Of a DNA stretch of 21,078 bases, positions 1 to 19,604 are shown one piece after another. The first letter of the stretch is position 1, and every line of letters begins with the position of its first letter. The translations under genes and the position numbers were made by a program. The notes beneath the pieces are model-generated. The model ran no database searches, was not told where the DNA came from, and saw only the letters and a program-made list of their open reading frames with translations. Source of the stretch: an uncultured virus (IMG/VR IMGVR_UViG_3300021197_001731) (lineage: Duplodnaviria; Heunggongvirae; Uroviricota; Caudoviricetes); IMG/VR virus record IMGVR_UViG_3300021197_001731. One strand, written 5' to 3'.

Positions 1-486
1 AATCAACCCTTGTCTATATCAGAGATCTATACCTGTAGTTGTCCAGCCTATCTTCATGCTGTATTGCGGAACCCTGAATCAACTGATGATGATGGCAAAA
101 AGATTAACAGACAGCAACGTCTTCCAACACCTACTGCAAAAGGTGCTTCAACTTATGAAGCCAATGGATTGCTAAAAACAGTAGGCATTGCGGAGTCATG
201 GGCCACAGATGAATACAAAAAAAGCTTTAAGGTTTGCAAGCACACCATCGCTGCAATGTTTATCGACAAGGTACGAGTAATGGAACCTAATACATTTCCA
301 AGTGCTGATGCTCGTGAGAAGTTTGAAGCAAAATTAGCCAAAGACATTGAGGAAGTTGCTGAAGAATTTACGGCACAGTTAAGACGATCGGAGATGACTC
401 AAATAGAAGTTATATATGCGCTAGCAGAGGCGTTAAACCTTGATGACGTAGAAATTGGTTATGTGTTATTAACAAGTAAATTCTAA
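1..486 (+). CDS. SWIM-type zinc-finger protein, 5'-partial
   Basis: The frame is open from base 1. CSCP...CKH matches the SWIM CxC-x(n)-CxH pattern. Confidence 0.6.
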   Translation, partial: NQPLSISEIYTCSCPAYLHAVLRNPESTDDDGKKINRQQRLPTPTAKGASTYEANGLLKTVGIAESWATDEYKKSFKVCKHTIAAMFIDKVRVMEPNTFPSADAREKFEAKLAKDIEEVAEEFTAQLRRSEMTQIEVIYALAEALNLDDVEIGYVLLTSKF

Positions 487-511
487 TCAAATACAATAGA
501 TAAAGAAACAT

Positions 512-2299
512 GTGAGTGTAGTTGTGACCTCAAGTAATGAAAACTACCAAGGCGTATTGGATGCTATTAATGAACTACGTGCACGTAATGGCGAGTCTGC
601 TCAAAACAATCCACCAAACTGGAAAGGTATTATTAATGCCTTACAGTCACTAAACAAATGGGGACAGGTAGAAAACGGAGATACTCCACCAGGATATGTA
701 CCTGATTACGATTCAGGAGGCAGCATAACCGGCAGTCACTACAATCCACAGCCTGATAATGGTCGTCTGTGGTTTGATATACGATCGGGCCGTCTGCTTA
801 TTTGGCAAGATGATGGTTGGTATCAAACTAACGGTGCTGACGGTCTACCATTCTTTGCTACCTCTGCTCCTGCTTCAGAAGTCCCAGGTGCACTTTGGTT
901 TAATACAGCAAACTTAAATCTATATATCTATGATGGCAGCAACTGGATCTTAATTTCAAGTCCTACAGGCGCAACAACCACAACAGCACTCCCATTAACC
1001 TCAGCAGAAAGTAACTTATTCCCTGTTCCCGCTAATATACAAACGCAGAATCAAGCCAATACTTACTTTATTGGAGCTGTATCTACACTACAAACCAACG
1101 TTACAGCGTTGCAAACAGAACAAGCTGCACCTATCTCAGCTTCTGCACCTAGCGCAACAACAGCTGGTGAGTTTTGGTTTAATAGTACAACGTTAGAACT
1201 AAGGGTGTCTTACGGAGGAGCATGGGTGCCTGCTTCTCTGCCGTTAACGGATGATACAGATTTTGTAGCACTGAGTACTACTGTTACCAACAACTACACA
1301 ACCACAACCAATCTGATTACAGCATCTAATGTTCGCATCACAGCACTAGAGAATGCACCACTACGTACGTTAACGCTTGCAGTCGATACTAATGAAAAAG
1401 CAATTGTACTAAATGATAGTGCTGCAACAAATACTCAAGTTAAGTTTTTGGGTACAAATGGAATTGGTATAACAGTAACAGCTTCAGATATAACAGTCGA
1501 TGCTGCTGGTGTTCTTACAGCTGCCAGTGGATTAATTACAGCAACTGGATGGGGGACAGCAATTACTAACCTGACAACCAGGACCACCGCTTTAGAGACA
1601 GATGTAACTACTTTGCAGAATACACCAGTTGTATCAGTTAGTGCATTCAATACGCTAAATACCACCGTTAGTGGCTTACCTACAACCTCTGACTTGAACC
1701 TGAAAGTTGACAAAAGTAGTCCATCATTTACTACCGACGTAGACTTCAATAACAATCGCTTACTTCAAGTAGGCACAGCTACTGCATCAACAGATGGCGT
1801 AAACAAGGCGTATGCGGACGCAATCAAAACGTATGCAGATAATACTTTTATTACTCAAACGACCAGTACATTAGGCAACCTAATTATTAGTCGTACAAAT
1901 CTAAGTGCGCCTGCTCTTGATTTCTCAGGATCTCATACTAATAGTTTTGAAGCATTTAAATTCAAGACATATGGTGGATCAGGAACGGTCACATTTGGTG
2001 TTACTGCTTACACAAATGAATATGCTTATACATTTACTGGTGACGAAGAGTTCTCTTGGATTGGTGCTAGTGGTAAAACAGCATTTATAGATGACACTGG
2101 TATTACTACTGAAGCTTTAACAATCGCAGATATTAGTAGAAACTCTGGTGGCACACAAGTATTGTCCAACACAATTGATGTAAAGGAACGGATTTCTACA
2201 TATCAGACTGCATTGATTGGAGTGAGGACTGCATTAAATACCTCTTCTGATTACGCTAGCTTTAAGACAGCTGCGTTAACCGCCCTAGCCAACATTTAA
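512..2299 (+). CDS. virion structural / tail-fibre-like protein
   Basis: 595 aa, T/S/A/N-rich. Three G-x-(L/F)-W-F-(D/N)...W repeats, coiled-coil segments (RITALE, RTTALE) and a DGVNKAYAD fibre motif. Confidence 0.7.
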   Translation: MSVVVTSSNENYQGVLDAINELRARNGESAQNNPPNWKGIINALQSLNKWGQVENGDTPPGYVPDYDSGGSITGSHYNPQPDNGRLWFDIRSGRLLIWQDDGWYQTNGADGLPFFATSAPASEVPGALWFNTANLNLYIYDGSNWILISSPTGATTTTALPLTSAESNLFPVPANIQTQNQANTYFIGAVSTLQTNVTALQTEQAAPISASAPSATTAGEFWFNSTTLELRVSYGGAWVPASLPLTDDTDFVALSTTVTNNYTTTTNLITASNVRITALENAPLRTLTLAVDTNEKAIVLNDSAATNTQVKFLGTNGIGITVTASDITVDAAGVLTAASGLITATGWGTAITNLTTRTTALETDVTTLQNTPVVSVSAFNTLNTTVSGLPTTSDLNLKVDKSSPSFTTDVDFNNNRLLQVGTATASTDGVNKAYADAIKTYADNTFITQTTSTLGNLIISRTNLSAPALDFSGSHTNSFEAFKFKTYGGSGTVTFGVTAYTNEYAYTFTGDEEFSWIGASGKTAFIDDTGITTEALTIADISRNSGGTQVLSNTIDVKERISTYQTALIGVRTALNTSSDYASFKTAALTALANI

Positions 2300-2301
2300 T
2301 C

Positions 2302-2496
2302 ATGCCTTCATTTAACTTTCCATCTAATCCAACAAATGGGATGACTGTCAAAAACGATACTACAGGAGTTTCCTATTCATGGGATAAAGAATCTAATTCC
2401 TGGAACATTGTACGTACAAGCGTGAATGATGCTCTCGATAATGTCACAACAGCGTTAGTATCGTTAACAGGTCCGATGGGAAATAAAGATGTTTAA
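2302..2496 (+). CDS. small virion-associated protein
   Basis: N-terminus FNFPSNPTNG...YSWD...W resembles the start of fibre 2 (LDFPD...YTY...W). Tightly packed with neighbours. Confidence 0.55.
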   Translation: MPSFNFPSNPTNGMTVKNDTTGVSYSWDKESNSWNIVRTSVNDALDNVTTALVSLTGPMGNKDV

Positions 2497-2692
2497 GCCC
2501 GAAGATTTTCACTTATCAATGGAAAAAGAACTCAAGAAACGAGTCATCTTTGACGACATTAATGCGTGCGATAATGTTGAGACTCTACAAAACAGTCTTC
2601 GTCAAGTTACTGATCAATTGATGAAGTACCAACAGCTACTAGATGCCACGCTACGACAGCTGTTGGACATTGAACTAACAAAGTTAGAATAG
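2489..2692 (+). CDS. NblA-like phycobilisome degradation protein (candidate)
   Basis: 67 aa, predicted two-helix. LSMEKEL...I...D-x-E-x-L...L...Q-x-LL resembles the marine cyanophage NblA pattern. Recognised by eye only. Confidence 0.5.
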   Translation: MFKPEDFHLSMEKELKKRVIFDDINACDNVETLQNSLRQVTDQLMKYQQLLDATLRQLLDIELTKLE

Positions 2693-2716
2693 ATAGAGAA
2701 AGCTACTGGATGACAG

Positions 2717-3259
2717 ATGCCTAATGTTGGAGACACTAAAACAAGATTTGGTCGTCAGTATATCTATTTAAATCCTGCCCCTAACGGAACAGGAACTATA
2801 GGTGAATGGCGTTTGCGTATTGATGATAATGGTCAACCACCCATTACACCAGGTGGCACTACTAATTTAGGTTACCAAGCAACTGTTGCAGCTGGTCAGC
2901 CAACTATTGTTGCAGGCAATCTCATTTACTTGGATTCCGCAGGAGAAGCAAAACTTGCAGACGCTTCAACTATCGCTGAATCTGTTGTTGTAGGCATGAC
3001 AACAACACAGGCAAGTGCTGGTGCTTTGGTCGAATTTACAAGGAATGAAATCAAGACAATCTTTAATGTCTCAACAGTTGTTGAAGGTGGACCTTCTGCA
3101 TTAGTTCCAGGCACAGTGTATTACTTGAGTACGGTTGCTGGTAAATGGACTACAACTCCAAATGCCACTACTGCTGGTTCAGTGATTAGATCCTGTGGCA
3201 CAGCAGTAGATACAGACAAAATGTCCATTGAAATTCAAATTGTTACTTCTGCAATCTAA
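2717..3259 (+). CDS. virion structural protein (capsid-fibre/cement-like)
   Basis: 180 aa. GNLIYLDSAG..KLADA...VVG...LVPGTVYYLS..AG pattern is typical of phage fibre/decoration proteins. Confidence 0.5.
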   Translation: MPNVGDTKTRFGRQYIYLNPAPNGTGTIGEWRLRIDDNGQPPITPGGTTNLGYQATVAAGQPTIVAGNLIYLDSAGEAKLADASTIAESVVVGMTTTQASAGALVEFTRNEIKTIFNVSTVVEGGPSALVPGTVYYLSTVAGKWTTTPNATTAGSVIRSCGTAVDTDKMSIEIQIVTSAI

Positions 3260-3708
3260 TGGCAAATCGTAAAATCACCGTACTTAATCCAACAGGGTAC
3301 CAAGAGCTATTTCAATCAGGTGACGTCCTGGTATTAGATGGAAGTGTAGATCTTCAATCAAATGGCATTACAGGCATTCCTGATCCAACACAAAATTTAG
3401 ATTGTTCAAATAAAAAATATGTAGATGATACTAAAGCTTTGCTTGACAGTGACATCGCAACAATCAATACTAACATCACAAACCTGACGAACAGTATTGG
3501 TAACGGTACTATTAGCTTCAGTGCTTCACAGAACATGACTGTAGCTGGCAGTCTTACAACCAATCAGGCTGGTAACTCAACAATTACATTAACTGGTCCA
3601 GATCTGACCAACTTACTACCAAAACCATCTGCTGATGGTGTTTACGTAGTCAATAAAACAGGAGTCAATGTGACATATGTCGAAGTGATTGACGGCGGTT
3701 CATATTGA
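3259..3708 (+). CDS. virion structural protein
   Basis: 149 aa. ITGIPDPT..D.SNKKYVD fibre motif; C-terminal IDGGSY. Start overlaps the upstream stop (TAATG). Confidence 0.6.
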   Translation: MANRKITVLNPTGYQELFQSGDVLVLDGSVDLQSNGITGIPDPTQNLDCSNKKYVDDTKALLDSDIATINTNITNLTNSIGNGTISFSASQNMTVAGSLTTNQAGNSTITLTGPDLTNLLPKPSADGVYVVNKTGVNVTYVEVIDGGSY

Positions 3709-3758
3709 TAGAATGAATACAACAGTTCTTACTGTTGTTAAATTGCTTATTAGTCAAG

Positions 3759-6700
3759 ATGAAGTTACAATTAAAACGCAGTAATGTTCTAGTTAGTGGT
3801 GGTGCAAAAGAACCAACTGCAGCACAACTAGATTACGGCGAATTAGCAATTAACTACAGTGCAGGAGATGCTGCTATCTTCCTGAAGGATAGTACTAATA
3901 ATGTTATTCGAATTGCTGGTGTAGGCAATATTGCAGACGATGGTTTAACTAACGTACCGACTACCACAAGTCCTCCAACAACTCCAACACCAGAAGCTGG
4001 TAACCTATGGTATAACTCAGAAGATGGCCGTTTATATATTTACTACGTAGATGATAATAGTTCTCAGTGGGTTGATGCAAGTCCCGATACTTGGCAAACC
4101 ACAGTAATCCCAGATACTACTAACCCTGCTCATCAGGCAGGGACATTGGATGATCGATATATTAATACCAATGGCGACACGCTCACTGGTGCCTTGTTGC
4201 TTGATAATGCAGCAACTGTGGCAACACCAGACCTTGCATTTGATGGCGACCTAAATACAGGCATCTATTCACCTGGTGCTGATTCATTAGCTATTACAAC
4301 TGCTGGAACGCAGCGCGTCACTGTTGACAGCTCGGGGAGGCTGTTGGTTGGTACGTCTGCTGCCCCAAGCGTTGGTATCCCTGCCAGTGCAACTTTTGTT
4401 GTGCAGGGTTACGTAGGCTCTACAACCGGCGATTCTTTAATTAGTCTGCAAAGAGGTCAAGCTCCTGCAAGTATTTCCAGCGGAGCTCAACTTGGTGCAA
4501 TTACTTTTGGCGCCAATGATGGTAGTCCTTACGCACAGATCCATGCAGCAACTGATGGCTCAGGTGGAACAAGTGACTATCCAGGAAGATTAGTTTTTTC
4601 AACCACTGCCGACACAGGATCAGCACCCGCCGAGCGCATACGTATCGACAGCTCGGGCAATGTTGGGATTAATAACTCAAGCCCTTCTAGTTATAACAGT
4701 GATGGAAGAAATTTAGTTGTGGGTTCTGGCTCAGGTGGTCAAGGATTAAGTATTGCCAGTGGTACTAGCAGCTATGGAACTATTTATTTTGCCGATGGAA
4801 CGTCTGGTGATGCTCTTTACCGTGGTTCTGTTCTTTACAACCATGCAAGCGATTTCATGCGGTTTGATACCGCTGCAAACGAGCGGATGCGAATCGACAG
4901 CTCGGGAAAGGTTGGGATTGGAACGTCATCAGTTGACGCCAATTTACATATTAAAGGCAGCTACCCTACTGTTCATATTGAGCGCGACCATGCTACTAAT
5001 TACTCTCGGCTACTATTAGACAATACTTCTAATGATGGTGGAGCAATTGATGGCATTGGAGATGGTACCGGTGGACTGCGCATTTCTACATCAGCTGCTG
5101 GAACTATTACCGAGCGTATGCGAATCGACAGCTCGGGAAATGTTGGGATTGGAACAACGTCACCATCAGCTCAAATTGAAATCGAAGGAAACGTATCTTC
5201 AGTTACACAGTTCTCAGGTTTTCAAGGACTTCGCATTCAAAACGCAAATGGTGCCGCTTATGGAGTTACCGCTGATATAAATTTTGTAGCAGGCACATCC
5301 TCTAACAATAGAGGCGCAGTCATAGGTGCTGAATTTGTAAGTGGAACAAATGGCAATGACCTTTACTTTGCTACTAATAGCAGTTCAGTAAGTTCCAATG
5401 ATACACCTACGGAGCGGATGCGAATCGACAGCTCGGGGCTTGTAAATGTCACAGGCGGAATCCAAGTAACCCAAAATGTGACCCCTACGGCTGGTAGTGG
5501 TGTTGAAATTTTTAAGCCATCTAGTACCGCTGGTCAACTGCAAGCATTTAACAGAACCGGAAGTGCTTGGATGGATCTAATCCTTAAAGGTAATACTCAA
5601 CAATTTCATGCAAATGGCTCCGAGCGTATGCGAATCGACAGCTCGGGCAATGTTGGAATTGGAACAACGAGTCCTAGTCAACTGCTTGAGATAGCATCAA
5701 CTGCTCCAAATATTAGATTCACGGATACCATTGATGGTCACTCTGAAATTGATGGAAATGCAGCAAACTTGAAATTTAACGCTGATAAAGGCAATGCAAA
5801 GGCTGACTCCAATATTAGTTTTGCTGTGGATAATTCCGAGCACATGCGAATCAACAGCTCGGGAAATGTTGGGATTGGAACGACGTCGCCTGCCAATGTT
5901 TTACACATTAAAAACGATTCCCCAACGATTCGTCTTGAGTCAAGTGCAAGCAGCTATGTAGGAAGAAATACTATTGGCCAATATCAAAGTGGATTATTTA
6001 TTGATTGTGATAATGACAACGCTATTGCTAACTCATTCACATCATTTGGCGTAGATGGCAGCGAGCGGATGCGAATCGATAGCTCTGGTCGTATGGGGAT
6101 TGGAACGACGACACCATCAAGAACATTAACTGTTCAAGGAGATATGAACCTTGCGAGTGGTTCAAATATTGAAAGTGATTCCTCAGGAGGAACACTGCGG
6201 ATTCAAGGTGGATCTACTTATCCTGGTGGCACTATTTTAATGGGAGGAGGGTCTGGTACTAATGATATTCGCTTTAGCACAACTGGTGTTTCTACTTCTG
6301 TATCAGCAACTGAGCGCATGCGAATCGACAGCTCGGGCAGGGTGTTAGTGGGTGGTTCAAGTCCTTACGTTACAGATGCTAATTTTCAAGTAAGGGATGA
6401 TACTAATGCTAAGTTTGTAATAAGTAATCCTGGTAATGCAACATACTCATTAGCGGTTGGCACAGATAACGCTCTTGCATTTAAAGATGAATCAAATGGT
6501 GCCGAGCGGATGCGAATCGACAGCTCGGGCGATCTTTGCGTAGGCTGCACCAGTTTTAATACTAATACTCCAGGTGCTACTATCAAAAATCATTTAGGAA
6601 ATCGCGGAAGAATTAATGTTGTAAAAACATTCTCTGGAACTGCAGACGCAATTGCTTGTTATCACTCAGGGTCTTATGTTGGAGGCATACTTTACACCAA

Positions 6701-7022
6701 TACAGGAACTTCTATATATAGCTCTTCCGACTATCGACTTAAAACAAATATCGTTAATTTAGCAAATGCAGTTGATCGAGTTAAAAATTTATTGCCAAAG
6801 CGTTTTAACTTTATTTCAGAGCCAGACAATATTGTTGATGGATTTATTGCGCACGAGGTTCAAGATGTTGTGCCTGAGGCTGTATTTGGCGAAAAAGACG
6901 GAGAAAGAATGCAAGGCATTGATCATTCTAAACTTGTTCCACTGCTTACTGCTGCACTACAAGAAGCAATTGCCAAGATCGAAACCCTTGAACAGCGTCT
7001 ATCTGATGCTGGTATCGCCTAG
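3759..7022 (+). CDS. long tail fibre 1 with ERMRIDSSG repeat modules and C-terminal intramolecular chaperone (peptidase S74)
   Basis: ATG at 3759 preferred over TTG 3735. N-terminal LKRS..PT...L.YGELAIN anchor motif, 10 ERMRIDSSG-type junctions, SSDYRLKTNI cleavage motif and a C-terminal coiled coil. Confidence 0.9.
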   Translation: MKLQLKRSNVLVSGGAKEPTAAQLDYGELAINYSAGDAAIFLKDSTNNVIRIAGVGNIADDGLTNVPTTTSPPTTPTPEAGNLWYNSEDGRLYIYYVDDNSSQWVDASPDTWQTTVIPDTTNPAHQAGTLDDRYINTNGDTLTGALLLDNAATVATPDLAFDGDLNTGIYSPGADSLAITTAGTQRVTVDSSGRLLVGTSAAPSVGIPASATFVVQGYVGSTTGDSLISLQRGQAPASISSGAQLGAITFGANDGSPYAQIHAATDGSGGTSDYPGRLVFSTTADTGSAPAERIRIDSSGNVGINNSSPSSYNSDGRNLVVGSGSGGQGLSIASGTSSYGTIYFADGTSGDALYRGSVLYNHASDFMRFDTAANERMRIDSSGKVGIGTSSVDANLHIKGSYPTVHIERDHATNYSRLLLDNTSNDGGAIDGIGDGTGGLRISTSAAGTITERMRIDSSGNVGIGTTSPSAQIEIEGNVSSVTQFSGFQGLRIQNANGAAYGVTADINFVAGTSSNNRGAVIGAEFVSGTNGNDLYFATNSSSVSSNDTPTERMRIDSSGLVNVTGGIQVTQNVTPTAGSGVEIFKPSSTAGQLQAFNRTGSAWMDLILKGNTQQFHANGSERMRIDSSGNVGIGTTSPSQLLEIASTAPNIRFTDTIDGHSEIDGNAANLKFNADKGNAKADSNISFAVDNSEHMRINSSGNVGIGTTSPANVLHIKNDSPTIRLESSASSYVGRNTIGQYQSGLFIDCDNDNAIANSFTSFGVDGSERMRIDSSGRMGIGTTTPSRTLTVQGDMNLASGSNIESDSSGGTLRIQGGSTYPGGTILMGGGSGTNDIRFSTTGVSTSVSATERMRIDSSGRVLVGGSSPYVTDANFQVRDDTNAKFVISNPGNATYSLAVGTDNALAFKDESNGAERMRIDSSGDLCVGCTSFNTNTPGATIKNHLGNRGRINVVKTFSGTADAIACYHSGSYVGGILYTNTGTSIYSSSDYRLKTNIVNLANAVDRVKNLLPKRFNFISEPDNIVDGFIAHEVQDVVPEAVFGEKDGERMQGIDHSKLVPLLTAALQEAIAKIETLEQRLSDAGIA

Positions 7023-7029
7023 CGGTATC

Positions 7030-7049
7030 CCGCCCCATGGCAACGTGGG
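7030..7049 (+). repeat. 20-bp hairpin repeat after fibre 1 (copy 1)
   Basis: CCGCCCCATGGCAACGTGGG is identical to 10362-10381. Confidence 0.9.
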
Positions 7050-7105
7050 ATATCAATATCTAATAACCGACAATTGCTAGAATAAGTAATATCGACGATA
7101 ATCAA

Positions 7106-7462
7106 ATGGCCGACACTTACTCCTGGAAAGTAGCAACATTAGACCGCGAGATTTCTAATGGTACTGTTTATACAGTTCACTATACAGTTTCTGCTTCTCG
7201 TGCAAACCCTGCTGAAGGTGAAAGCGACTATACAGCTGGTTCATACGGCAGTGTGGGTGTTACTGCAGATCCTTCTTCCAAGAGCTTTATCCCCTATGAG
7301 GATCTAACCGAAGATAATTGCATCGATTGGGTCAAGGCAGATCTTGGTAGTGAATCAGTAGATGCTATTGAAGTTAGTATTTCAAGTAATTTAGACGAAC
7401 AAGTTAATCCAACAGATGCAGCTGGCGTGCCTTGGGCTACGGAAACTACTACTGCTGAATAA
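7106..7462 (+). CDS. conserved phage protein, possible tail-fibre assembly/accessory factor
   Basis: 118 aa, acidic. W.V..LDRE...VYTVHY...GSVG...FIPYEDLTE...I.WVK family is commonly found next to such fibres. Confidence 0.6.
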   Translation: MADTYSWKVATLDREISNGTVYTVHYTVSASRANPAEGESDYTAGSYGSVGVTADPSSKSFIPYEDLTEDNCIDWVKADLGSESVDAIEVSISSNLDEQVNPTDAAGVPWATETTTAE

Positions 7463-7515
7463 ACTCACAAAGTAATAGTTAATAGCTAGAATAAAACCTG
7501 AGTCTAATACTTAAT

Positions 7516-7701
7516 ATGGCCTGTAAAAAATCAGAGTTGGTAGGAGCTATCAATTCATTTGCGACTGCACGTGCAAGTGGTGATAATGCGCTACAGCAAA
7601 TGTCTGCACAATTGCTGCAGAATACAATTGAAACACTGGAGTTTGAGCCAGAAGAAGTTGCCGAAGAATCTACAGAGGTAGAAGAAGAAACTTCTAATTA
7701 G
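7516..7701 (+). CDS. hypothetical phage protein with acidic tail
   Basis: 61-aa ORF with its own TAGAAT element 23 nt upstream. Confidence 0.7.
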   Translation: MACKKSELVGAINSFATARASGDNALQQMSAQLLQNTIETLEFEPEEVAEESTEVEEETSN

Positions 7702-7738
7702 TAATCGTTAAAATAGGACTATTACAAGTCTCTGAATA

Positions 7739-10354
7739 ATGGCTAAGTTAGATTTTCCTGATGCTTCTTACTCTCCTTGGGTTGCTCCAAACAATGTAAT
7801 CTATACATACATTGGAACATCACCAAATGGGTACTGGGAAGCTAACACTGCCAATGCCGCAACAAACCTAACTGCTGTCTTTGTAGAACGCACAGGCAGC
7901 ATAATGACTGGTGCATTGAAGTTAGATAATGCTGGCAGTGTATCTCTGCCTGATATAAGTTTTGACGGTGATGTTAATACTGGTCTGTATTCCCCCGGTG
8001 CTGATTCATTAGCAATTACAACTGCTGGGACGCAGCGCGTTGTTGTTGACAGCTCGGGAAATGTTGGTATTGGAACTACAAGCCCTGTATCTACTGGGGC
8101 TAATTATGGATCATTAGATATTAATGGTTCTGATGGAGGCGAGCTTTATTTATCAGACAGTGGAACAGCTAAAGGTAATTTATTTAATTATTCCGCTGAT
8201 TCTAATTTAATAGGACTTGCTGCGGTAAACGCATCTGGACAACTTTTATTTAGCACAGGTGGTTACAACGAGCGCCTACGAATTGACAGCTCGGGCAGAG
8301 TAGGGATTGGCACTACGAGTCCTGACGCTAAACTAAGCATAACTGGAGCATACAATCAAGATGGATTGAAAGTATTGTCAGGCGGTGCTAGCTATCAATC
8401 GCCGTTAATTGTTGGTCCTGCAAGCGGTGGTGAGTACATGCGAGTTGACGGCTCGGGCAATGTTGGGATTGGAACGGCGACACCCCTTTCAAAACTAAAT
8501 GTTAAGGGGACACAAGGAAACTGGCGTGTTGACCCAGACTCTGTTTCAAATGAAATTCAAATCCTTTCAACTAACGCAGCTAATTCAGGTTTCTTAAGCT
8601 TTAGATTGCGTGCTAATGACACCATCTTTGAAAATGGTGGCAGCGAGCGGATGCGAATCGACAGCTCGGGAAATGTATTTATCGGTGGCTCGACGGCTTC
8701 GAGTGCAGATATTGCGCTGAATGCCAATGGCAGTGCGAGTTTTAAAGGAACAATTTCCGCATCAGGGCAGAACACCATAAATGAAGCGAGCGCACTAAAG
8801 TTCAGCCAAGAAACTAACGTCAAATCTCAAATCAGGGCTTACGGTCCAGATGCTTCTACGAATGGAAGTCTTGAATTTAAAATTAGTCCTACCAGCGGAA
8901 CAGCTTTAACACCGCTGACCTTAAACAGTGACGGTAGCGCCACATTTGCGGGTGGCTCTTTCACTATTGCAAGTGACGGTGATATTACTACAAACATTAG
9001 AGGTCATGGTCATATAGAACTTGATTCTACCGGATCTTTTGGTAGTCCTAAGATAAAACTATTTTCTAACACGGGCAATGCCGAGTTTGCTGGCACTGTT
9101 ACCACAGGCGGAACTATAAATGCTGCCAACACCTCAGCAGCGGGTAATGCTATTATTATTGGAAATAGTAATCAAATAGTTTTACAAGCCAACGGCAGCG
9201 CGAGCTTCACCTCTGGGGTGAAAATGTTCCGCACCGCTGGAGATAGTTCCACGCGCATTAATATTGGTGAAAGCGATACTCTGGCTGTCTGGCAAAACGA
9301 TGGCAACTTCAGTATTGGATACGATGGCACCGCGAGGTTTGGTGCTACGAGTGTCGGACATACTGATTTAAACAAAAACAGTGTTTCAATTTACCCTGAG
9401 CAAAATGCTCCTGCAGCTACTCCAATTATTAGCAGTTATGACTCTACTTGGAGTACGCCGACCTTCCAGTTAACAGCTTCAGGCAGTGGGACTTTTAGGG
9501 GTGACCAATCTATTGAAAATAGTAGTTACATAAGAGTTAGAAAAGCTGGCGACAACACGTCAACGGCAATTCAGTTAGCACCTGACGGCAGCGCGAGCTT
9601 TGCTGGTGATGTTCAGGTGGCAGATACTAAAATTCGTTTAGTGACTAGCTCTAATAATGGTCTGATTAGAGTTCTTAATTCGTCTCTGGTTGATACGATA
9701 TTTCTCGCTGGTTCAGATGGCAGCGCGACTTTTGGAACCGGATATAAAGTTAAAATTAGACCTTATGACGGAGATAGCGCAAATCAATTCTGGACACAGA
9801 AAACTAATGGAACCATATCTTCCTATATAACAGGTGCAGGCAGCGCGAGTTTTGCTGGCACCGTCTCAGCTCAAGGTTCAGTCCTTACTTCGGATCAACG
9901 CTTTAAAGAAAACATCACTGATGCAAACCCACAGCTTGCTGATGTAACTGCTTTAGGAAATAAACTACGTAACTGGGATTGGACTGCTGATGCACCTGTT
10001 GCAGATAAAGATACACGCTTCCTTGGCCTTGTTGCACAAGAAGCTGAAACTGTTTGCCCTGGTATTGTCACAACGATTGCTCGTACAAAAGATGGCGCTG
10101 AACTAACGCCCGAAGTTGTCGTGCCTGCTGTATATGAAACAAGAACAGTCCCTGCCGTACTTGATGAAGAAGGCGAAGTAGTTGAAGCTGAAACTACTGA
10201 ACAAGTTCTCGTTACTGAAGAACAAGTTACACCAGCTACTTACGAACAACTGGACGATTCCTACAAAGGAATTAAAAACGATATTCTTATTATGAAACTG
10301 CTTGGTGCAGTAGCTGAACTTTCAGCCAAAGTTGCGGCTCTTGAAGCTGGTTGA
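7739..10354 (+). CDS. long tail fibre 2 with two repeat families and C-terminal intramolecular chaperone (peptidase S74)
   Basis: Four ERMRIDSSG-type junctions, then nine (D/N)GSA(S/T)F repeats. TSDQRFKENI and GLVAQE chaperone motifs, C-terminal coiled coil. Confidence 0.9.
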   Translation: MAKLDFPDASYSPWVAPNNVIYTYIGTSPNGYWEANTANAATNLTAVFVERTGSIMTGALKLDNAGSVSLPDISFDGDVNTGLYSPGADSLAITTAGTQRVVVDSSGNVGIGTTSPVSTGANYGSLDINGSDGGELYLSDSGTAKGNLFNYSADSNLIGLAAVNASGQLLFSTGGYNERLRIDSSGRVGIGTTSPDAKLSITGAYNQDGLKVLSGGASYQSPLIVGPASGGEYMRVDGSGNVGIGTATPLSKLNVKGTQGNWRVDPDSVSNEIQILSTNAANSGFLSFRLRANDTIFENGGSERMRIDSSGNVFIGGSTASSADIALNANGSASFKGTISASGQNTINEASALKFSQETNVKSQIRAYGPDASTNGSLEFKISPTSGTALTPLTLNSDGSATFAGGSFTIASDGDITTNIRGHGHIELDSTGSFGSPKIKLFSNTGNAEFAGTVTTGGTINAANTSAAGNAIIIGNSNQIVLQANGSASFTSGVKMFRTAGDSSTRINIGESDTLAVWQNDGNFSIGYDGTARFGATSVGHTDLNKNSVSIYPEQNAPAATPIISSYDSTWSTPTFQLTASGSGTFRGDQSIENSSYIRVRKAGDNTSTAIQLAPDGSASFAGDVQVADTKIRLVTSSNNGLIRVLNSSLVDTIFLAGSDGSATFGTGYKVKIRPYDGDSANQFWTQKTNGTISSYITGAGSASFAGTVSAQGSVLTSDQRFKENITDANPQLADVTALGNKLRNWDWTADAPVADKDTRFLGLVAQEAETVCPGIVTTIARTKDGAELTPEVVVPAVYETRTVPAVLDEEGEVVEAETTEQVLVTEEQVTPATYEQLDDSYKGIKNDILIMKLLGAVAELSAKVAALEAG
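8729..9853 (+). repeat. second junction repeat family GGCAGCGCGAGYTTT (GSASF), 9 copies
   Basis: Copies at 8729, 8933, 9074, 9194, 9326, 9482, 9587, 9719 and 9839, some degenerate. Confidence 0.85.
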
Positions 10355-10361
10355 CAGTAAA

Positions 10362-10386
10362 CCGCCCCATGGCAACGTGGGGCTTT
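10362..10386 (+). terminator. hairpin/terminator between convergent fibre 2 and endolysin genes (copy 2 of the 20-bp repeat)
   Basis: GCCCCAT-GGCAAC-GTGGGGC followed by TTT. Confidence 0.6.
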
Positions 10387-10390
10387 GCAG

Positions 10391-11098
10391 TTAAACCATA
10401 TATTGCTTACAGATTTTGTACTTCGCAAATCTGTCGTTGTATCCGTTCCATCCACCATTAATTCGATAACAGCAGGCATCAAAGCCTTCTGTAAGACATA
10501 TATTCAATAGATCATTCTCTTCAATCCAGATGCGTGCTGATGTGAATGGATAGGTAGTAGACACATAGTCAACACCTTCCATAACCTTGGGATCGTTAAT
10601 ACCTTCAGCTAGACGAGAGTAGTTATATTTTCCAGTCAGCTGAAGTACACCGGCACCTTTCCAAATTTCTCCCTCGTCTGGGCCATGTCCTAAGTCAGTC
10701 CTACCACGCAAGTACATACCGTCTGAAATCTCTTTCATATAAACAAAGTTGCACGTTTCATGCATCATGTTCGCCATGAGCATTTGTGCTGCATCAATAT
10801 GTTCTGCAAACCCTGTATCAGCATACAAGCGATTGCAATCATCGATAAAGACTTTATCAAAAGCAGATGATGGATAGCCAGTCAACTGCTCCATCATCAG
10901 TGGTGTCACCAGTTTTTTAAACTTCTTGATGTCAGCTGTTTTTCTATACGTCTTTACCCAGTCCGCATCTTCGTTTAACTGATCGGAGTTACATCTCTGC
11001 AAGCCCTGATATAGCTCTTCTACAGCTGCTTCTTGATGAGACTCCCCTGCGTAATACTTAAAAAAATTCTTGAAGGATTCTATTGATAAGGCACTCAT
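10391..11098 (-). CDS. glycoside hydrolase family 19 (chitinase-like) endolysin
   Basis: HET..F.YMKEI, KGAGVLQLTGKYNY and RINGGWNGYNDR are GH19 motifs. An N-terminal FFKYY...HQ.AAV.EL...WV.TYR domain precedes them. Confidence 0.88.
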   Translation of the reverse strand: MSALSIESFKNFFKYYAGESHQEAAVEELYQGLQRCNSDQLNEDADWVKTYRKTADIKKFKKLVTPLMMEQLTGYPSSAFDKVFIDDCNRLYADTGFAEHIDAAQMLMANMMHETCNFVYMKEISDGMYLRGRTDLGHGPDEGEIWKGAGVLQLTGKYNYSRLAEGINDPKVMEGVDYVSTTYPFTSARIWIEENDLLNICLTEGFDACCYRINGGWNGYNDRFAKYKICKQYMV

Positions 11099-14013: not shown

Positions 14014-14067
14014 AACAGAAGGTGCTTTTAGGGGACTTTTGACCAGAAGCTGATATACTGAGAACCC

Positions 14068-14190
14068 GCGTCAATACTGAGTAGTTACCACTAAACTACG
14101 CCCGCAAAGGCGACTCCCTAACCTACGGGAGTTCAGGAATTGTGGCAACCCCACAAATACTGATGGTTATAGGTAGACAGGTATTGGCGT
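14068..14190 (+). ncRNA. candidate multibranch structured RNA/ssDNA element upstream of the recombinase
   Basis: A closing helix (14068-79 with 14178-90) encloses four hairpins. TATACT at 14054-59 lies just upstream. Structure assigned by eye. Confidence 0.5.
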
Positions 14191-14205
14191 TCCTTATATA
14201 ACCTC

Positions 14206-14976
14206 ATGTACACAGTCGGAAAGCTTCGGGACTATTCAGCTCCTTACGCAGGCATCACAGACAGCACCTACCGAATGTGGGAAATCACATCACGGCGAAT
14301 GGCTGACCAACCAGTTGTTGCGATTACTTCGCAAGTAGCTGACCTTTACTACAAGTCAGCACTCAAGGACTGGGCAAAGTCAACACTGAAAACTCGGTTG
14401 GGTTACCTGAGTTCTATGTGGAACATCGGTATCAGCAAGGGCATCATCCCAAGTTTTAACCCTTGGGCAAAGATGGGTAGCAAATTGGAATACTCCAAGA
14501 AGCATTACGCCCCTAAAAATTTTGAAGCATTTTCTGCCTTTCACGAGGACCCTATCTTTAATGGTCTCTGGTGGCACGGCTTCAGAGTTAATGAACTAGC
14601 AGGAGTACAGCCAGGAGACTTTGTGCTTGACACAGATGTTCCTTACATTCACGTTTACGAAAATAATGTAAGAGGACTTAAGAACAGATACAGTGCAAGG
14701 ATGGTGCCTATTCATCCTGAGTTTGCTCCCTATGTAAACCATTGGGAATACACAAGCAACCCTAAAGCAGGCGATAACTGGAGCCGTAGATTCAAGGCTC
14801 ACACCGGCACATCCGCTCACGGCTTACGGCATATGTTTATCAACCGAATGCGGAAAGCAGGCATTGAATACAGCATTGCTATGAAAATAGTAGGACACAA
14901 ATGTCAAGGGCAAACAGGTGATTATGGTGACATTGAACTAATAGATATGCTGAACGAGCTACAGAAACTACGCTAA
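14206..14976 (+). CDS. tyrosine recombinase (core-binding + catalytic domains, no arm-binding domain)
   Basis: Catalytic set intact: GFRVNEL (R), LKN (K), HGLRH (HxxR), VGH (H), TGDYG (Y). 256 aa. Confidence 0.9.
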   Translation: MYTVGKLRDYSAPYAGITDSTYRMWEITSRRMADQPVVAITSQVADLYYKSALKDWAKSTLKTRLGYLSSMWNIGISKGIIPSFNPWAKMGSKLEYSKKHYAPKNFEAFSAFHEDPIFNGLWWHGFRVNELAGVQPGDFVLDTDVPYIHVYENNVRGLKNRYSARMVPIHPEFAPYVNHWEYTSNPKAGDNWSRRFKAHTGTSAHGLRHMFINRMRKAGIEYSIAMKIVGHKCQGQTGDYGDIELIDMLNELQKLR

Positions 14977-15805: not shown

Positions 15806-16258
15806 ATGGGAATTGCTGAAGACTGGAAGGACCTAATGTTCGACCTCACTTGCTTATCTAAGCAAAGTGCCAAGCGCAGATTTAAAAAGTCAATTAAGTA
15901 TGGATGGGGTGGACTCTGCGGATACTGCAGATGCAATCGAGCAACCACACTGGACCACATAAAACCAAAGTCAAAAGGTGGAGATGGCCGAAGAGGCAAC
16001 CTTCTGCCCTGCTGCCTTGAGTGTAATCACTCCAAAGGGAGTGAACCTTGGTTAGTATGGTTTCAAAGGCAGTCATTTTACAATGAAACTGCAAAAGAAC
16101 TTATTGAAGAATGGATCTCAAACAAACGTTTTATAGAGGAAGAGTTAGGTGATGGAAGCACTAACAATCGAACAACGGTTTGCCTTAACCAGAGCTCGAT
16201 ACGAAGTATCCCGAATGAGCCGCCCAGCCTTGGAAAAAACTGCGTTGCGTCTGCTTAA
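15806..16258 (+). CDS. HNH endonuclease
   Basis: CGYC...TLDHIKPKSKGG...NLLPCCLECNHSKG. Confidence 0.9.
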   Translation: MGIAEDWKDLMFDLTCLSKQSAKRRFKKSIKYGWGGLCGYCRCNRATTLDHIKPKSKGGDGRRGNLLPCCLECNHSKGSEPWLVWFQRQSFYNETAKELIEEWISNKRFIEEELGDGSTNNRTTVCLNQSSIRSIPNEPPSLGKNCVASA

Positions 16259-16475
16259 GTCCCGCATGGAGCTTAAGAACGGTACACAAAACACACTACT
16301 AAAAGCCGGGATCATGTTCAAAATTGATGAGCATCAGGCGGGGTTGCCTGAGATCATTAGTGAAGAAACATTTATGGAGCTGCTACTGAGAGCAGACGAT
16401 GATTTACCAACAAGTATCGACGATCAAGAATATGAGAATGATGATCTAGATGATGATGGTCTTATGATTGGCTAA
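16152..16475 (+). CDS. NblA-like N-terminus with acidic C-terminal extension (candidate)
   Basis: LTIEQRF.L.....V.RMSR..L...L resembles the NblA L(S/T)LEQ.F...V..MSREQ pattern. D-rich tail. Confidence 0.5.
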   Translation: MEALTIEQRFALTRARYEVSRMSRPALEKTALRLLKSRMELKNGTQNTLLKAGIMFKIDEHQAGLPEIISEETFMELLLRADDDLPTSIDDQEYENDDLDDDGLMIG

Positions 16476-17824: not shown

Positions 17825-18007
17825 TTAGTGGGAGTAATTTACGCCACGGTATGTAAAACAACCATGCCGCTCTGCAGGGGCAGTAGAAGAAACTGTGGGG
17901 ATCCCACGGTAACGTGTTTCAGACAGGCGATGAATACGTAGTTCGTTTTGTGCGCGACGATACTCTTTGCGAGCATTTTCGACAGCACGAGCTTGTAATT
18001 GGGTCAT
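17825..18007 (-). CDS. DUF4278-like 'YRG' small protein
   Basis: 60 aa from ATG 18007, with GGAG upstream. Two YRG motifs (RYRGI, TYRGVNY); lies downstream of a glutamine riboswitch. Confidence 0.75.
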   Translation of the reverse strand: MTQLQARAVENARKEYRRAQNELRIHRLSETRYRGIPTVSSTAPAERHGCFTYRGVNYSH

Positions 18008-18036
18008 TGGAAACTCCATAGTGAGGTGTAGTTTCC

Positions 18037-18092
18037 CGTTCCTTCCCTCCATTCGTGAGGTACTTGCGTCTCCCAGTGTGAGGAGATGAACG
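18037..18092 (-). promoter_or_regulatory. glutamine riboswitch (glnA / Downstream-peptide family)
   Basis: CGUUC-A-UCUCC(loop)GGAGA-CGCAAGUA-CCUC(loop)GAGG-GAAG-GAACG: three-stem junction with AGUA/GAA E-loop. TAAACT lies 7 nt upstream. Confidence 0.85.
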
Positions 18093-18109
18093 TATCTATA
18101 GTTTAACAG

Positions 18110-18212
18110 GGACTCCCCCACAAATCGCAGGGAAGAGTAATTACTCAGAGAGAAGCAGCAGAAATCTCTGAAACCTAAAGTGCACCCTGACGCTGCTCTT
18201 CTTCAGGTGCAT
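18110..18212 (-). ncRNA. candidate kissing-loop ncRNA
   Basis: Hairpins at 18181-18211 and 18145-18171 have complementary loops (AGCAGC/GCTGCT). TAGACT at 18217-22 is immediately upstream. Confidence 0.45.
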
Positions 18213-18263: not shown

Positions 18264-19604
18264 ATGGCAAGGAAAAAATCTGGTAGGAATAATAAACCAA
18301 GTCCAAAACCTTCACGTAAGCCATCACCTAGGCCTTCGCCACGTCCATCACCTAGGTCTTCACCTAAGCCTTCACCTAGGCCTTCACCTAGGCCTTCACC
18401 TAGGCCTTCGGCAAGACCTTCACCAAGGCCAGCTCCAGCTAGGCAGCAAGCTAAAGCAGTCGCTCAAATGAGCGTTAAGGATCGAAGAGCTGGTGCAAAA
18501 TCTGCTGGTGTAAGTCTTAAAAATTATAAAGCAGGTAACACTGGAGCAAAGGCTCAAGCATCAAAGGCTGCTGCTGCAGCTAGAAATAATCCCAAACCTG
18601 CCCAAGCCCCTAGACCTACAGTTAATGGTACATATGGAACTAAGCAGTTAGCAACACAAAGATCGCAGATGTCTGTTAAAGATAGGCGTGCTGGTCAAGC
18701 TGCTTCTGGGTTAAGCATGAAACAATATAAAGCAGGTGGTACTGCACCTCGCGCTACAACTCAGGCAGTTGGTGAAAACGTTGGTGGTGGTACATCTTCA
18801 AACACATTCAAGACCGCTGCCGGTTATCAAATGGAGAAGGGTGCGTATAACAAAAAAGTTACAGATATGTACGAGTATGCCAAAGAGCATCACCCGACTT
18901 CCGGCACGTCAAATATGGCTCCTGACCTTGCAAGTTTTGATGAGGAGGGATACTTAAGTTACGATTCGACCAAGCCGATGTGGCAAGCAAATAATATGTT
19001 GAAAGAAGCAGGGTACAAAGTAGGAGATATGCTTTGGAAACCTGGCAGTAAAGATAATTTAAATGGTCGTGAACTTACTGGACGTATTGCAAAAATTACA
19101 GAGAATGGAAATTACGTTGCTGAGTATGTACACGATGCTGTTAACTCTAGCCATCAAGGGACAGGAAACCGTGGCTATGGTGGCAAAGTAGGACTAGGAG
19201 CTGACCAGTATGCTTATAACAGGCAGTATGAACAAGATAACGATGTTGAGTATGGTCAAGTCAATCAGCAATTAGAAGCAAATGGTGTCAGCGATCAAGG
19301 GATTGATGATTACTGGCAAAATACTGATGCACAAAGGCAATCTATTGCTGATATGCGAAGTGGTGCATCAAACTTTGACGGACAGCAAAGTTTTGATAAT
19401 TACGGAAGTAATGAGTCAGACTTTGAGGCACCTGCACAAGCTGCCAATAATTTTGATTTTCAAATGCCTAATGTTCAACAAAGTATGGGACCTCAATACC
19501 AAGGCTGGCAACAGCAAATGGGTAACACAAGCCAAAGTCCATATGCTACTAGAAGCAAAATGAATTTTAACTTTGATCCTTATAAGTTCCAGCAAGGACA
19601 GTAG
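18264..19604 (+). CDS. low-complexity protein with basic (PSPR)n N-terminus and Q/N-rich C-terminus; possible internal virion protein
   Basis: ATG 18264 is 25 nt after TAGAAT. About 11 PSPR-type units and a duplicated QMSVKDRRAG...YKAG segment. Confidence 0.65.
   Translation: MARKKSGRNNKPSPKPSRKPSPRPSPRPSPRSSPKPSPRPSPRPSPRPSARPSPRPAPARQQAKAVAQMSVKDRRAGAKSAGVSLKNYKAGNTGAKAQASKAAAAARNNPKPAQAPRPTVNGTYGTKQLATQRSQMSVKDRRAGQAASGLSMKQYKAGGTAPRATTQAVGENVGGGTSSNTFKTAAGYQMEKGAYNKKVTDMYEYAKEHHPTSGTSNMAPDLASFDEEGYLSYDSTKPMWQANNMLKEAGYKVGDMLWKPGSKDNLNGRELTGRIAKITENGNYVAEYVHDAVNSSHQGTGNRGYGGKVGLGADQYAYNRQYEQDNDVEYGQVNQQLEANGVSDQGIDDYWQNTDAQRQSIADMRSGASNFDGQQSFDNYGSNESDFEAPAQAANNFDFQMPNVQQSMGPQYQGWQQQMGNTSQSPYATRSKMNFNFDPYKFQQGQ
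18297..18428 (+). repeat. 12-bp coding tandem repeat (CCTTCACCTAGG)
   Basis: About 11 degenerate units, three of them exact and consecutive. Confidence 0.9.

Follow-up and report, generated by a model that had tools for sequence, protein, structure and literature searches.

A shared DNA word at the segment joints of two marine phage tail-fibre genes and its probable part in segment exchange

Why should two tail-fibre genes carry, at one joint after another between protein segments that differ widely, a piece of DNA that is spelt almost identically each time? This question is raised by the IMG/VR virus record IMGVR_UViG_3300021197_001731, a marine cyanophage-like genome stretch of 21,078 nucleotides with a G+C content of 42% (the window, by which we mean the whole of this DNA), in which a short word marks the segment joints of two fibre genes. 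An earlier reading made from the letters alone (the sequence-only reading) proposed that the joints are folded palindromic recombination sites, related in kind to integron attC sites, that let receptor-binding modules be added, lost or swapped in frame, possibly by a recombinase encoded at 14206. Here the word is compared across a large number of other phages, and another mechanism is suggested: homologous exchange at a conserved structural motif, coupled with concerted evolution of the spelling of that motif, is probably the best explanation of what these sequences have in common.

The pattern [CG]AG[CT]-N15-GCTC has 14 matches on the + strand of the window, 10 of them in the frame of the open reading frame (ORF) at 3735-7022 and four in that of the ORF at 7739-10354, with a copy-to-copy spacing of 162-321 nt. 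The encoded peptide is E-R-M-R-I-D-S-S-G, followed by N-V-G-I-G-T-T-S-P. The core of the word, the 20-mer ATGCGAATCGACAGCTCGGG, has 12 matches in the window at up to three mismatches, whereas 100 shuffles averaged 0.00 matches and none had any. The two genes, the 14 junctions and the chaperone domain of the first fibre are as follows.

3735..7022, + strand: tail-fibre gene 1 (1095 amino acids), with N-terminal anchor, 10 junction copies and C-terminal S74 chaperone
4311..4337, + strand: junction 1 of fibre 1, the anchor copy Q-R-V-T-V-D-S-S-G, where homology with three relatives stops
4632..4658, + strand: junction 2 of fibre 1, E-R-I-R-I-D-S-S-G, pattern match
4881..4907, + strand: junction 3 of fibre 1, E-R-M-R-I-D-S-S-G, exact 20-mer core
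5112..5138, + strand: junction 4 of fibre 1, exact 20-mer core
5412..5438, + strand: junction 5 of fibre 1, exact core, left edge of shared segment A5
5622..5648, + strand: junction 6 of fibre 1, exact core, right edge of shared segment A5
5838..5864, + strand: junction 7 of fibre 1, E-H-M-R-I-N-S-S-G, core with one mismatch
6063..6089, + strand: junction 8 of fibre 1, GAT AGC TCT variant, core with two mismatches
6312..6338, + strand: junction 9 of fibre 1, exact core, left edge of shared segment A9
6504..6530, + strand: junction 10 of fibre 1, exact core, right edge of shared segment A9
6726..6884, + strand: S74 intramolecular-chaperone domain of fibre 1, Peptidase_S74 at residues 998-1050
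7739..10354, + strand: tail-fibre gene 2 (871 amino acids), sharing the anchor motif of fibre 1, with four junction copies followed by a second repeat type and an S74 chaperone
8033..8059, + strand: junction 1 of fibre 2, the anchor copy Q-R-V-V-V-D-S-S-G, pattern match
8270..8296, + strand: junction 2 of fibre 2, E-R-L-R-I-D-S-S-G, core with three mismatches
8432..8458, + strand: junction 3 of fibre 2, E-Y-M-R-V-D-G-S-G, core with three mismatches
8645..8671, + strand: junction 4 of fibre 2, exact 20-mer core

The uniformity of the junction DNA exceeds what protein conservation and codon bias account for. Taking codon backgrounds from the other genes of the window and from the parts of the fibres that lie beyond the motif, we found the junction Glu to be GAG in 12 of 12 copies (background 0.17-0.30), and similar excesses for CGA (11/12; 0.08-0.11), ATC (10/11; 0.15-0.27), GAC (12/13; 0.26-0.29), AGC (13/13; 0.14-0.17) and TCG (13/14; 0.02-0.06), the binomial tails ranging from 1.7e-5 to 1.7e-15. 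A recount reproduced the codon counts of the sequence-only reading (Glu as GAG in 12/12, Ser-Ser as AGC-TCG in 12/14 and GCTC in 14/14), and the longer palindrome CCGAGC...GCTCGG is present at the five copies that it named. Two third bases vary freely, that of the first Arg codon and that of the Gly codon which follows Ser-Ser (pairwise identity of 0.35 and 0.29). The conserved block is about 18 codons long and runs through G-N-V-G-I-G-T-T-S-P; directly outside it, on both sides, identity is at the baseline (0.2-0.4). Read in order, the window's spelling is ATC GAC AGC, then TCG .. AAT GTT GGG ATT .. ACG. Two finer details reported earlier are indeed there, namely a GAT-GCGA-ATC mini-hairpin and the retention of arm bases where the amino acid changes, at 5838 and 8432, but neither is independent evidence of a folded site, because the former results from the codons ATG-CGA-ATC and the latter from the codons CAC and GGC.

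Comparison with other phages places many boundaries of homology at the same joints. A contig of the nearest genome compared (G001) is 98% identical to the window over 1-4357 and is unalignable right after GTTGACAGCTCGGG of junction 1. Two further relatives, the IMG/VR phages L168 and L137, 88% identical over 3.3-3.8 kb, lose homology at 4336 and regain it either within the S74 domain (6801) or past the stop codon (7030). Single segments recur by themselves. Segment A5 (5412-5621) is found in L125 (92% identical), L184 (85%) and L168 (85%), in matches that begin at 5412 and stop at 5649, 5665 and 5671, and segment A9 (6312-6503) is found in L146 (86%) and L192 (89%), in matches that begin at 6309 and 6319 and stop at 6544 and 6530. 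The matches of all five recurrences begin between 3 nt before and 7 nt after the start of a junction and end 0-23 nt past the end of the next one, and in all five the flanking DNA is no more alike than chance would give (identity of 0.17-0.42). In L184 an A2-like segment stands directly before the A5-like one, where the window has two segments between them.

This preference is general. In an all-against-all comparison of 217 non-redundant loci and the window, using matches of at least 120 nt at 80% identity or more, 154 of 278 collapsed homology ends (55%; 190 of 344 raw) in 76 loci fall in junction zones, which make up 16% of the regions compared. Breakpoints favour the joints; random breakpoints were a result that the sequence-only reading had named as telling against it. 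Its proposal that segments are replaced, inserted or lost in frame at the junctions among related phages is supported; the recombinase acting on palindromic sites, which it had put forward as a possible agent of these changes, is not.

The joints also interrupt assemblies. Contigs of four public metagenome runs, aligned to 3000-10500, break and diverge at joints, but most signals of this sort can stem from other phages that have the word alone in common. Among the best 15 of 52 contig joints, 14 connect a junction's end with the start of a different junction, with a shorter side of 21-37 letters; as deletion variants these were rejected, since such short sides can arise from repeats or from other organisms. 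Among the best 24 of 315 loose contig ends, 13 lie in the junction-repeat regions, all 13 at -6 to +60 of a junction start. Many of the loose ends probably come from other phages that share the word alone, and they speak for sharing of the word and not for exchange. From run X4, a contig of 624 nt agrees with 4307-4658 apart from four differences; its remaining 272 letters are not placed beside the match. The last 620 nt of one contig of the nearest genome (L260; contig C168 of G001) end inside a later junction copy (...E-R-M-R-I-D-S-S-G-N-V-G), which is a typical assembly break at a repeated word.

The word extends well beyond the window's relatives. Its 20-mer occurs in more than 137 IMG/VR stretches, and the DNA of 80 loci was taken for comparison; codon use was counted in 99 non-redundant locus strands with G+C contents of 0.40-0.53. 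Outside the motif, the fibre ORFs of these carriers use CGA (0.14), TCG (0.08), ATC (0.24), GAC (0.37), AGC (0.19) and GAG (0.29) at low frequencies, and the word is therefore foreign to all carriers. Among the 99 non-exact copies in carrier loci, ATC is kept in 89, GAC in 91, AGC in 90, TCG in 70 and GAG in 79, CGA in only 33. The carriers include complete phages of 41 kb and 84 kb, and the structural protein at 512-2299, which neighbours the window's fibres, has a homologue in one of five carriers tested. The same DNA word is common to phages that are otherwise unrelated to the window.

A second sample was drawn without regard to codons, by scanning IMG/VR with the fully degenerate back-translation of E-R-M-R-I-D-S-S-G-N-V, which returned at least 123 stretches (the codon-blind sample). 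Here codon agreement within a gene is 611/913 (0.67), compared with 0.39 expected from the ORF's own usage, and 51 of 66 loci exceed expectation, whereas agreement between loci is 0.38. Each lineage thus has its own uniform spelling within the gene. The 125 exact copies of the peptide use GAA (97) or GAG (28) for Glu; the first Ser is TCC in 40, AGC in 30, TCA in 20, TCT in 17, AGT in 12 and TCG in six, and the second is AGC in 37, TCT in 26, TCA in 25, AGT in 16, TCC in 13 and TCG in eight. Asp is GAC in 99 of the 125 and Ile is ATC in 65. The tetrapeptide I-D-S-S has 59 spellings among 158 copies, seven of which have that of the window. The cultured phages S-EIVl, S-CRES1 and S-TIM5 have two to four junction copies each, in other spellings, and S-N03 has no junction copy by the search pattern used. 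At the DNA level, blastn against cultured phages gave short matches only, mostly to the S74 domain.

What the word encodes is indicated by known structures. Both fibre ORFs match PHROG tail-fibre families (gene 1 with E values of 1.8e-105 and 2.9e-101), PF13884 scores 39.2 and 29.9 bits in the two fibres (cut-off 22), and Peptidase_S74 in fibre 2 covers residues 718-777; the fibres belong to the S74-chaperone beta-helix class. Fibre 1 is matched by PDB entry 8OND, the Bdellovibrio fibre Bd2133 (E 1.1e-10), in which S-E-R-M-R-I-D-T-S-G-N-L-G-L-G-T is aligned on the window's motif. From this match we predict an intertwined trimeric beta-helix fold. In the account of such fibres by Caulton et al. 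(2024; PMC10769870), capping loops at the edges of the trimeric beta-helix have the consensus V-G-G/N-pi-x-x-P-x-x-x-L, and most of the window's copies, which read N-V-G-I-G-T-T-S-P-x-x-x-L, fit it. A full-text search of the literature gave no mention of the peptide strings of the junction motif, and no title or abstract among the best concept matches treats the motif.

We propose, as probably the best explanation, that the word codes for the structural element which is conserved best in a widespread kind of fibre, the trimeric beta-helix fibres with an S74 chaperone. The element would consist of a strand (E-R-M-R-I-D-S-S-G) and, after it, the capping loop (N-V-G-I-G-T-T-S-P-x-x-x-L), with which each beta-helix segment would begin. 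Since the motif stands at every segment boundary, each boundary would offer 20-30 nt of exact, in-frame DNA identity, and homology-dependent recombination in this short tract, whether by crossover, gene conversion or template switching, could take place between copies in one gene and between the fibres of co-infecting phages. Whole segments would be replaced, inserted or deleted in frame as a result. The same exchanges would spread one spelling through the copies of a gene and through the pool of exchanging fibres, and it is because of this concerted evolution that the word would be written in codons foreign to the genome. We infer both homologous recombination as the mechanism and the maintenance of the spelling by exchange from the comparison of sequences.

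Several observations weigh against this explanation. Tracts of exact identity are short: of 91 junction pairs, 26 share at least 20 nt, and the longest tract measures 30 nt. Such lengths approach the lowest at which RecA-type recombination is efficient. No recombination gene was identified in the window, and in a comparison of sequences homologous exchange and exchange of other kinds would look alike. The other 124 of the 278 homology ends lie outside junction zones, so that the joints are preferred sites and not exclusive ones; one such breakpoint, that of L168 at 6801, lies within the S74 domain and away from any junction copy. Third-base identity between orthologous copies (five cases) is only modestly higher in junctions (74/88) than in interiors (238/310). 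Furthermore, in the 209 codon-blind copies examined for this, the third bases of codons 4-9 are rich in C (0.50-0.73 compared with about 0.17), and those of codons 10, 11, 13, 14 and 16 are rich in G (0.26-0.33 compared with about 0.10). As this C-then-G pattern occurs in all spellings, the hitch-hiking of one spelling is inadequate to explain it and an added constraint is indicated. The pattern may come from codon choice at invariant residues, from biased repair at a recombination hot spot or from something more specific, and it is the part of these results that most deserves to be pursued.

The recombinase that the sequence-only reading had suggested lies 5.5 kb downstream of the junctions.

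14206-14976: tyrosine-recombinase-like ORF, PF00589 at 27.3 bits (cut-off 27.1), PHROG integrase with an E value of 4e-18

The integrases found at the same place in three relatives with the same junction word (L268, L269 and L270) are 37%, 36% and 30% identical to it. The flanks of this slot (14016-14959) are 82-98% identical to the relatives although the integrases are only 30-37% so, and the slot appears itself to be a swapped cassette.

If the junctions were folded palindromic sites like attC or sfx, used by a tyrosine recombinase and perhaps by this one, the constancy of the pattern in 14 of 14 copies, the presence of such an ORF in the neighbourhood and the left arms of the 167 core copies elsewhere (GAGY in 116, CCGAGC in 56) would all be accounted for. 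The sites themselves make poor hairpins, however. Their arms measure 4-6 bp and enclose a loop of 15 nt, and the minimum free energies predicted for the 14 single-stranded sites are -3.2 to -6.9 kcal/mol, with z values from +0.39 to -2.82, at or below -1.9 in four and above it in the other 10. Nor do the arms covary. Complementary 4-nt arms are found in 10 of 216 codon-blind copies (relaxed peptide pattern), whereas 12.0 such copies would be expected from independent spelling of the halves, and in 5 of 121 loci, and GAG[CT]-N15-GCTC is found in 8 of the 216. Homologous fibres spell ERMRIDSSG freely and have the palindrome no more often than chance would give, an outcome that the sequence-only reading itself had held to tell against it. 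Given the free spelling, and with arms at chance level, the GAGC...GCTC palindrome is a chance product of the way in which this lineage spells the word (GAG-C for Glu-Arg, AGC-TC for Ser-Ser). The ORF at 14206 fares no better in the role once suggested for it: no integron-integrase or Rci/shufflon model matches it above threshold, its NCBIfam matches are weak and generic to tyrosine recombinases (15.8-19.3 bits against cut-offs of 220-340), its counterparts in relatives have diverged in spite of the common word, and PF00589 has no match in five of five other phage records carrying the 20-mer, two of which, one of them a complete 41-kb genome, are at least 97% complete. With the sites all being direct repeats within one reading frame, and breakpoints occurring away from the word as well, we hold a hairpin-specific recombinase to be highly improbable. 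Even less can be said for the junction copies as leftovers of recent tandem duplication of one segment, which would suit tandem in-frame repeats of similar unit length and the faint protein similarity among some interiors (best blastp E value 3.5e-4). When the 14 segment interiors are compared they have no DNA similarity (best blastn E value 0.076, over at most 16 nt), so the modules are, as first described, largely unrelated at the sequence level; pairwise identity is at its baseline right up to the motif on both sides, and single segments are closer (85-92%) to segments of other phages than to those of their own gene. The baseline identity outside the approximately 18 codons and the unrelated interiors mean that the copies are not remnants of recent duplication. 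That alternative, which the sequence-only reading had raised, is refuted and its probability is close to nil, whereas ancient duplication of a common beta-helix unit is likely as the origin of the architecture.

Two other explanations turn on the third-base pattern. Selection at the level of translation alone, for accuracy or pausing at a critical motif, would make recombination at the joints incidental. The prevalence of GAC and ATC across lineages agrees with it, as do the C-rich codons 4-9, which fit a preference for C-ending codons at invariant residues, and the clustering of the rare codons CGA, TCG and GGG in the window's copies. Yet the rare codons are specific to lineages, TCG being used elsewhere in 6/125 and 8/125 copies at the two Ser positions; the many spellings of I-D-S-S, the AT-rich loci that use their own common codons (L023, for example) and the free third bases of the first Arg and of the invariant Gly after Ser-Ser also contradict it, and it is silent on homology boundaries, which concentrate at joints. 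We consider it quite unlikely, and a rare-codon pause as sole cause is rejected. Alternatively, the word could be an element like GRINS, a class of short repeats whose synonymous skew has a direction and which undergo active recoding and favour gene conversion. In the 209 copies, third bases are C-rich in codons 4-9 and become G/T-rich in codons 10-16; this change, and the same C-then-G/T order in the window's own spelling, recall the account of Nivina et al. (2021; PMC8256042), in which repeats recode stretches of the protein in a biased composition and stimulate gene conversion. The block here is only about 54 nt long, however, the comparison covers third bases alone, and the amino acids force part of the pattern, since among G+C choices only C or T can end the codons of Ile, Asp, Asn and AGY-Ser; moreover, the mechanism is not known for GRINS either. 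This element we regard as unlikely. The same idea takes a bolder form, which we think rather improbable: the word would be no passive by-product but a selected, dedicated exchange signal whose spelling sets the compatibility pools of segments, and the third-base pattern would be the footprint of oriented, GRINS-like gene conversion. If this were true, pools of fibre segments would be shared across unrelated marine phage families, and conversion would possibly be started by a nuclease of phage or host.

The anchor common to both fibres lies at 4200-4336 and 7920-8058, leading into each first junction, and has the peptide L-D-N..F-D-G-D-x-N-T-G-x-Y-S-P-G-A-D-S-L-A-I-T-T-A-G-T-Q-R-V; homology of fibre 2 with the relatives L168 and L137 stops at 7919, ahead of this anchor segment. 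The distal half of fibre 2 is built on the second repeat type, with a word of its own.

8729..9853, + strand: second junction word, (D/N)-G-S-A-(S/T)-F, spelt GGCAGCGCGASYTTY, seven copies in the distal half of fibre 2

The spelling GGCAGCGCGASYTTY has seven matches at up to two mismatches, compared with 0.16 expected, and its Ala is GCG (background 0.06). Metagenome contigs have loose ends at 9584, 9717 and 9839/9845, and blastn matches begin at 9839; all of these positions fall on copies of this second word.

Elsewhere, the genes of the window include a cyanophage outer-membrane beta-barrel, an endolysin and a family A DNA polymerase fragment, as well as the tyrosine-recombinase-like ORF. 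A free-standing HNH endonuclease ORF (PF01844) is located at 15806-16258 on the + strand; its best NCBIfam match is the HNH region of IscB, far under the model's cut-off. At 16149-16475 on the + strand there is a weak NblA-like match (E 0.0018, 19.1 bits, under the cut-off of 25), which adjoins cyanophage genes. On the - strand, 18033-18094 matches the glutamine riboswitch aptamer of Rfam (RF01739) with 44.3 bits, the gathering score being 35, and overlaps the 5' part of the ORF at 17825-18121; the gene that it regulates is probably a shorter ORF downstream of the aptamer. No tRNA gene was found in the window, and no Rfam family was matched in the fibre genes.

Tail fibres determine the host cells of a phage, and marine cyanophages would, by homologous exchange at the joints, rebuild theirs from interchangeable beta-helix segments. 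A word common to unrelated phages implies that marine phages draw on one pool of fibre parts. In viromes the junction word provides a simple sequence marker for segment boundaries. It also explains why assemblies break inside such fibre genes: the joint is repeated, as in the 98% identical relative, whose contig ends in one. Short-read assemblies probably fragment or mis-join these genes.

How does this system compare with those already known? Like the integron attC/IntI and shufflon/Rci systems, it has repeated short sites that bound exchangeable pieces of surface proteins or adhesins, and here a small palindrome accompanies them. In contrast to integron attC, however, there is no long imperfect hairpin, no covariation and no matching recombinase, and in contrast to both systems the junctions are in direct orientation only, inside one open reading frame. 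Inverted sites of the shufflon kind are absent: the motif is read from the + strand, in frame, in every one of the 14 copies. The minus-strand matches of the pattern that are listed within the fibre genes coincide with these palindromes, and a further one, at 18492, is outside the fibre genes. The mosaic adhesive trimer (MAT) fibres of Bdellovibrio and the S74 phage fibres T5 pb1 and K1F endosialidase (PDB 8OND, 8OML and 8OJN) share the C-terminal S74 chaperone with the fibres described here, and PMC10769870 mentions recombination just twice, in its cloning methods. With GRINS, as presented in PMC8256042, the word has in common that repeats in modular genes are recoded against local composition and tied to gene conversion between modules, although the stretches here are much shorter and the comparison was made on third-base composition.

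The closest parallel is that of the adhesins of T-even phages, in which, according to the account of Trojet et al. (2011; PMC3157838, citing Tetart 1996 and 1998), crossovers occur within small conserved motifs. There, in the conserved motifs of gp37 and the glycine-rich motifs of gp38, as here, short conserved motifs part hypervariable segments, and in-frame chimeric host-recognition proteins are the result. The fibres of the window have the same features, namely conserved motifs that part unrelated segments and natural mosaic boundaries at these motifs. The fibre family is a different one, the S74-chaperone beta-helix class of marine phages with another motif, and here the motif is spelt against the genome's bias in a form common to unrelated phages, which is not part of the T-even account in the available passages of PMC3157838. 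Functionally, the junction system works like motif-mediated exchange of the T-even type and is not a relative of integrons or shufflons. The principle is thus already known from T-even phages, and these marine fibres provide a further case of it, not a new kind of system.

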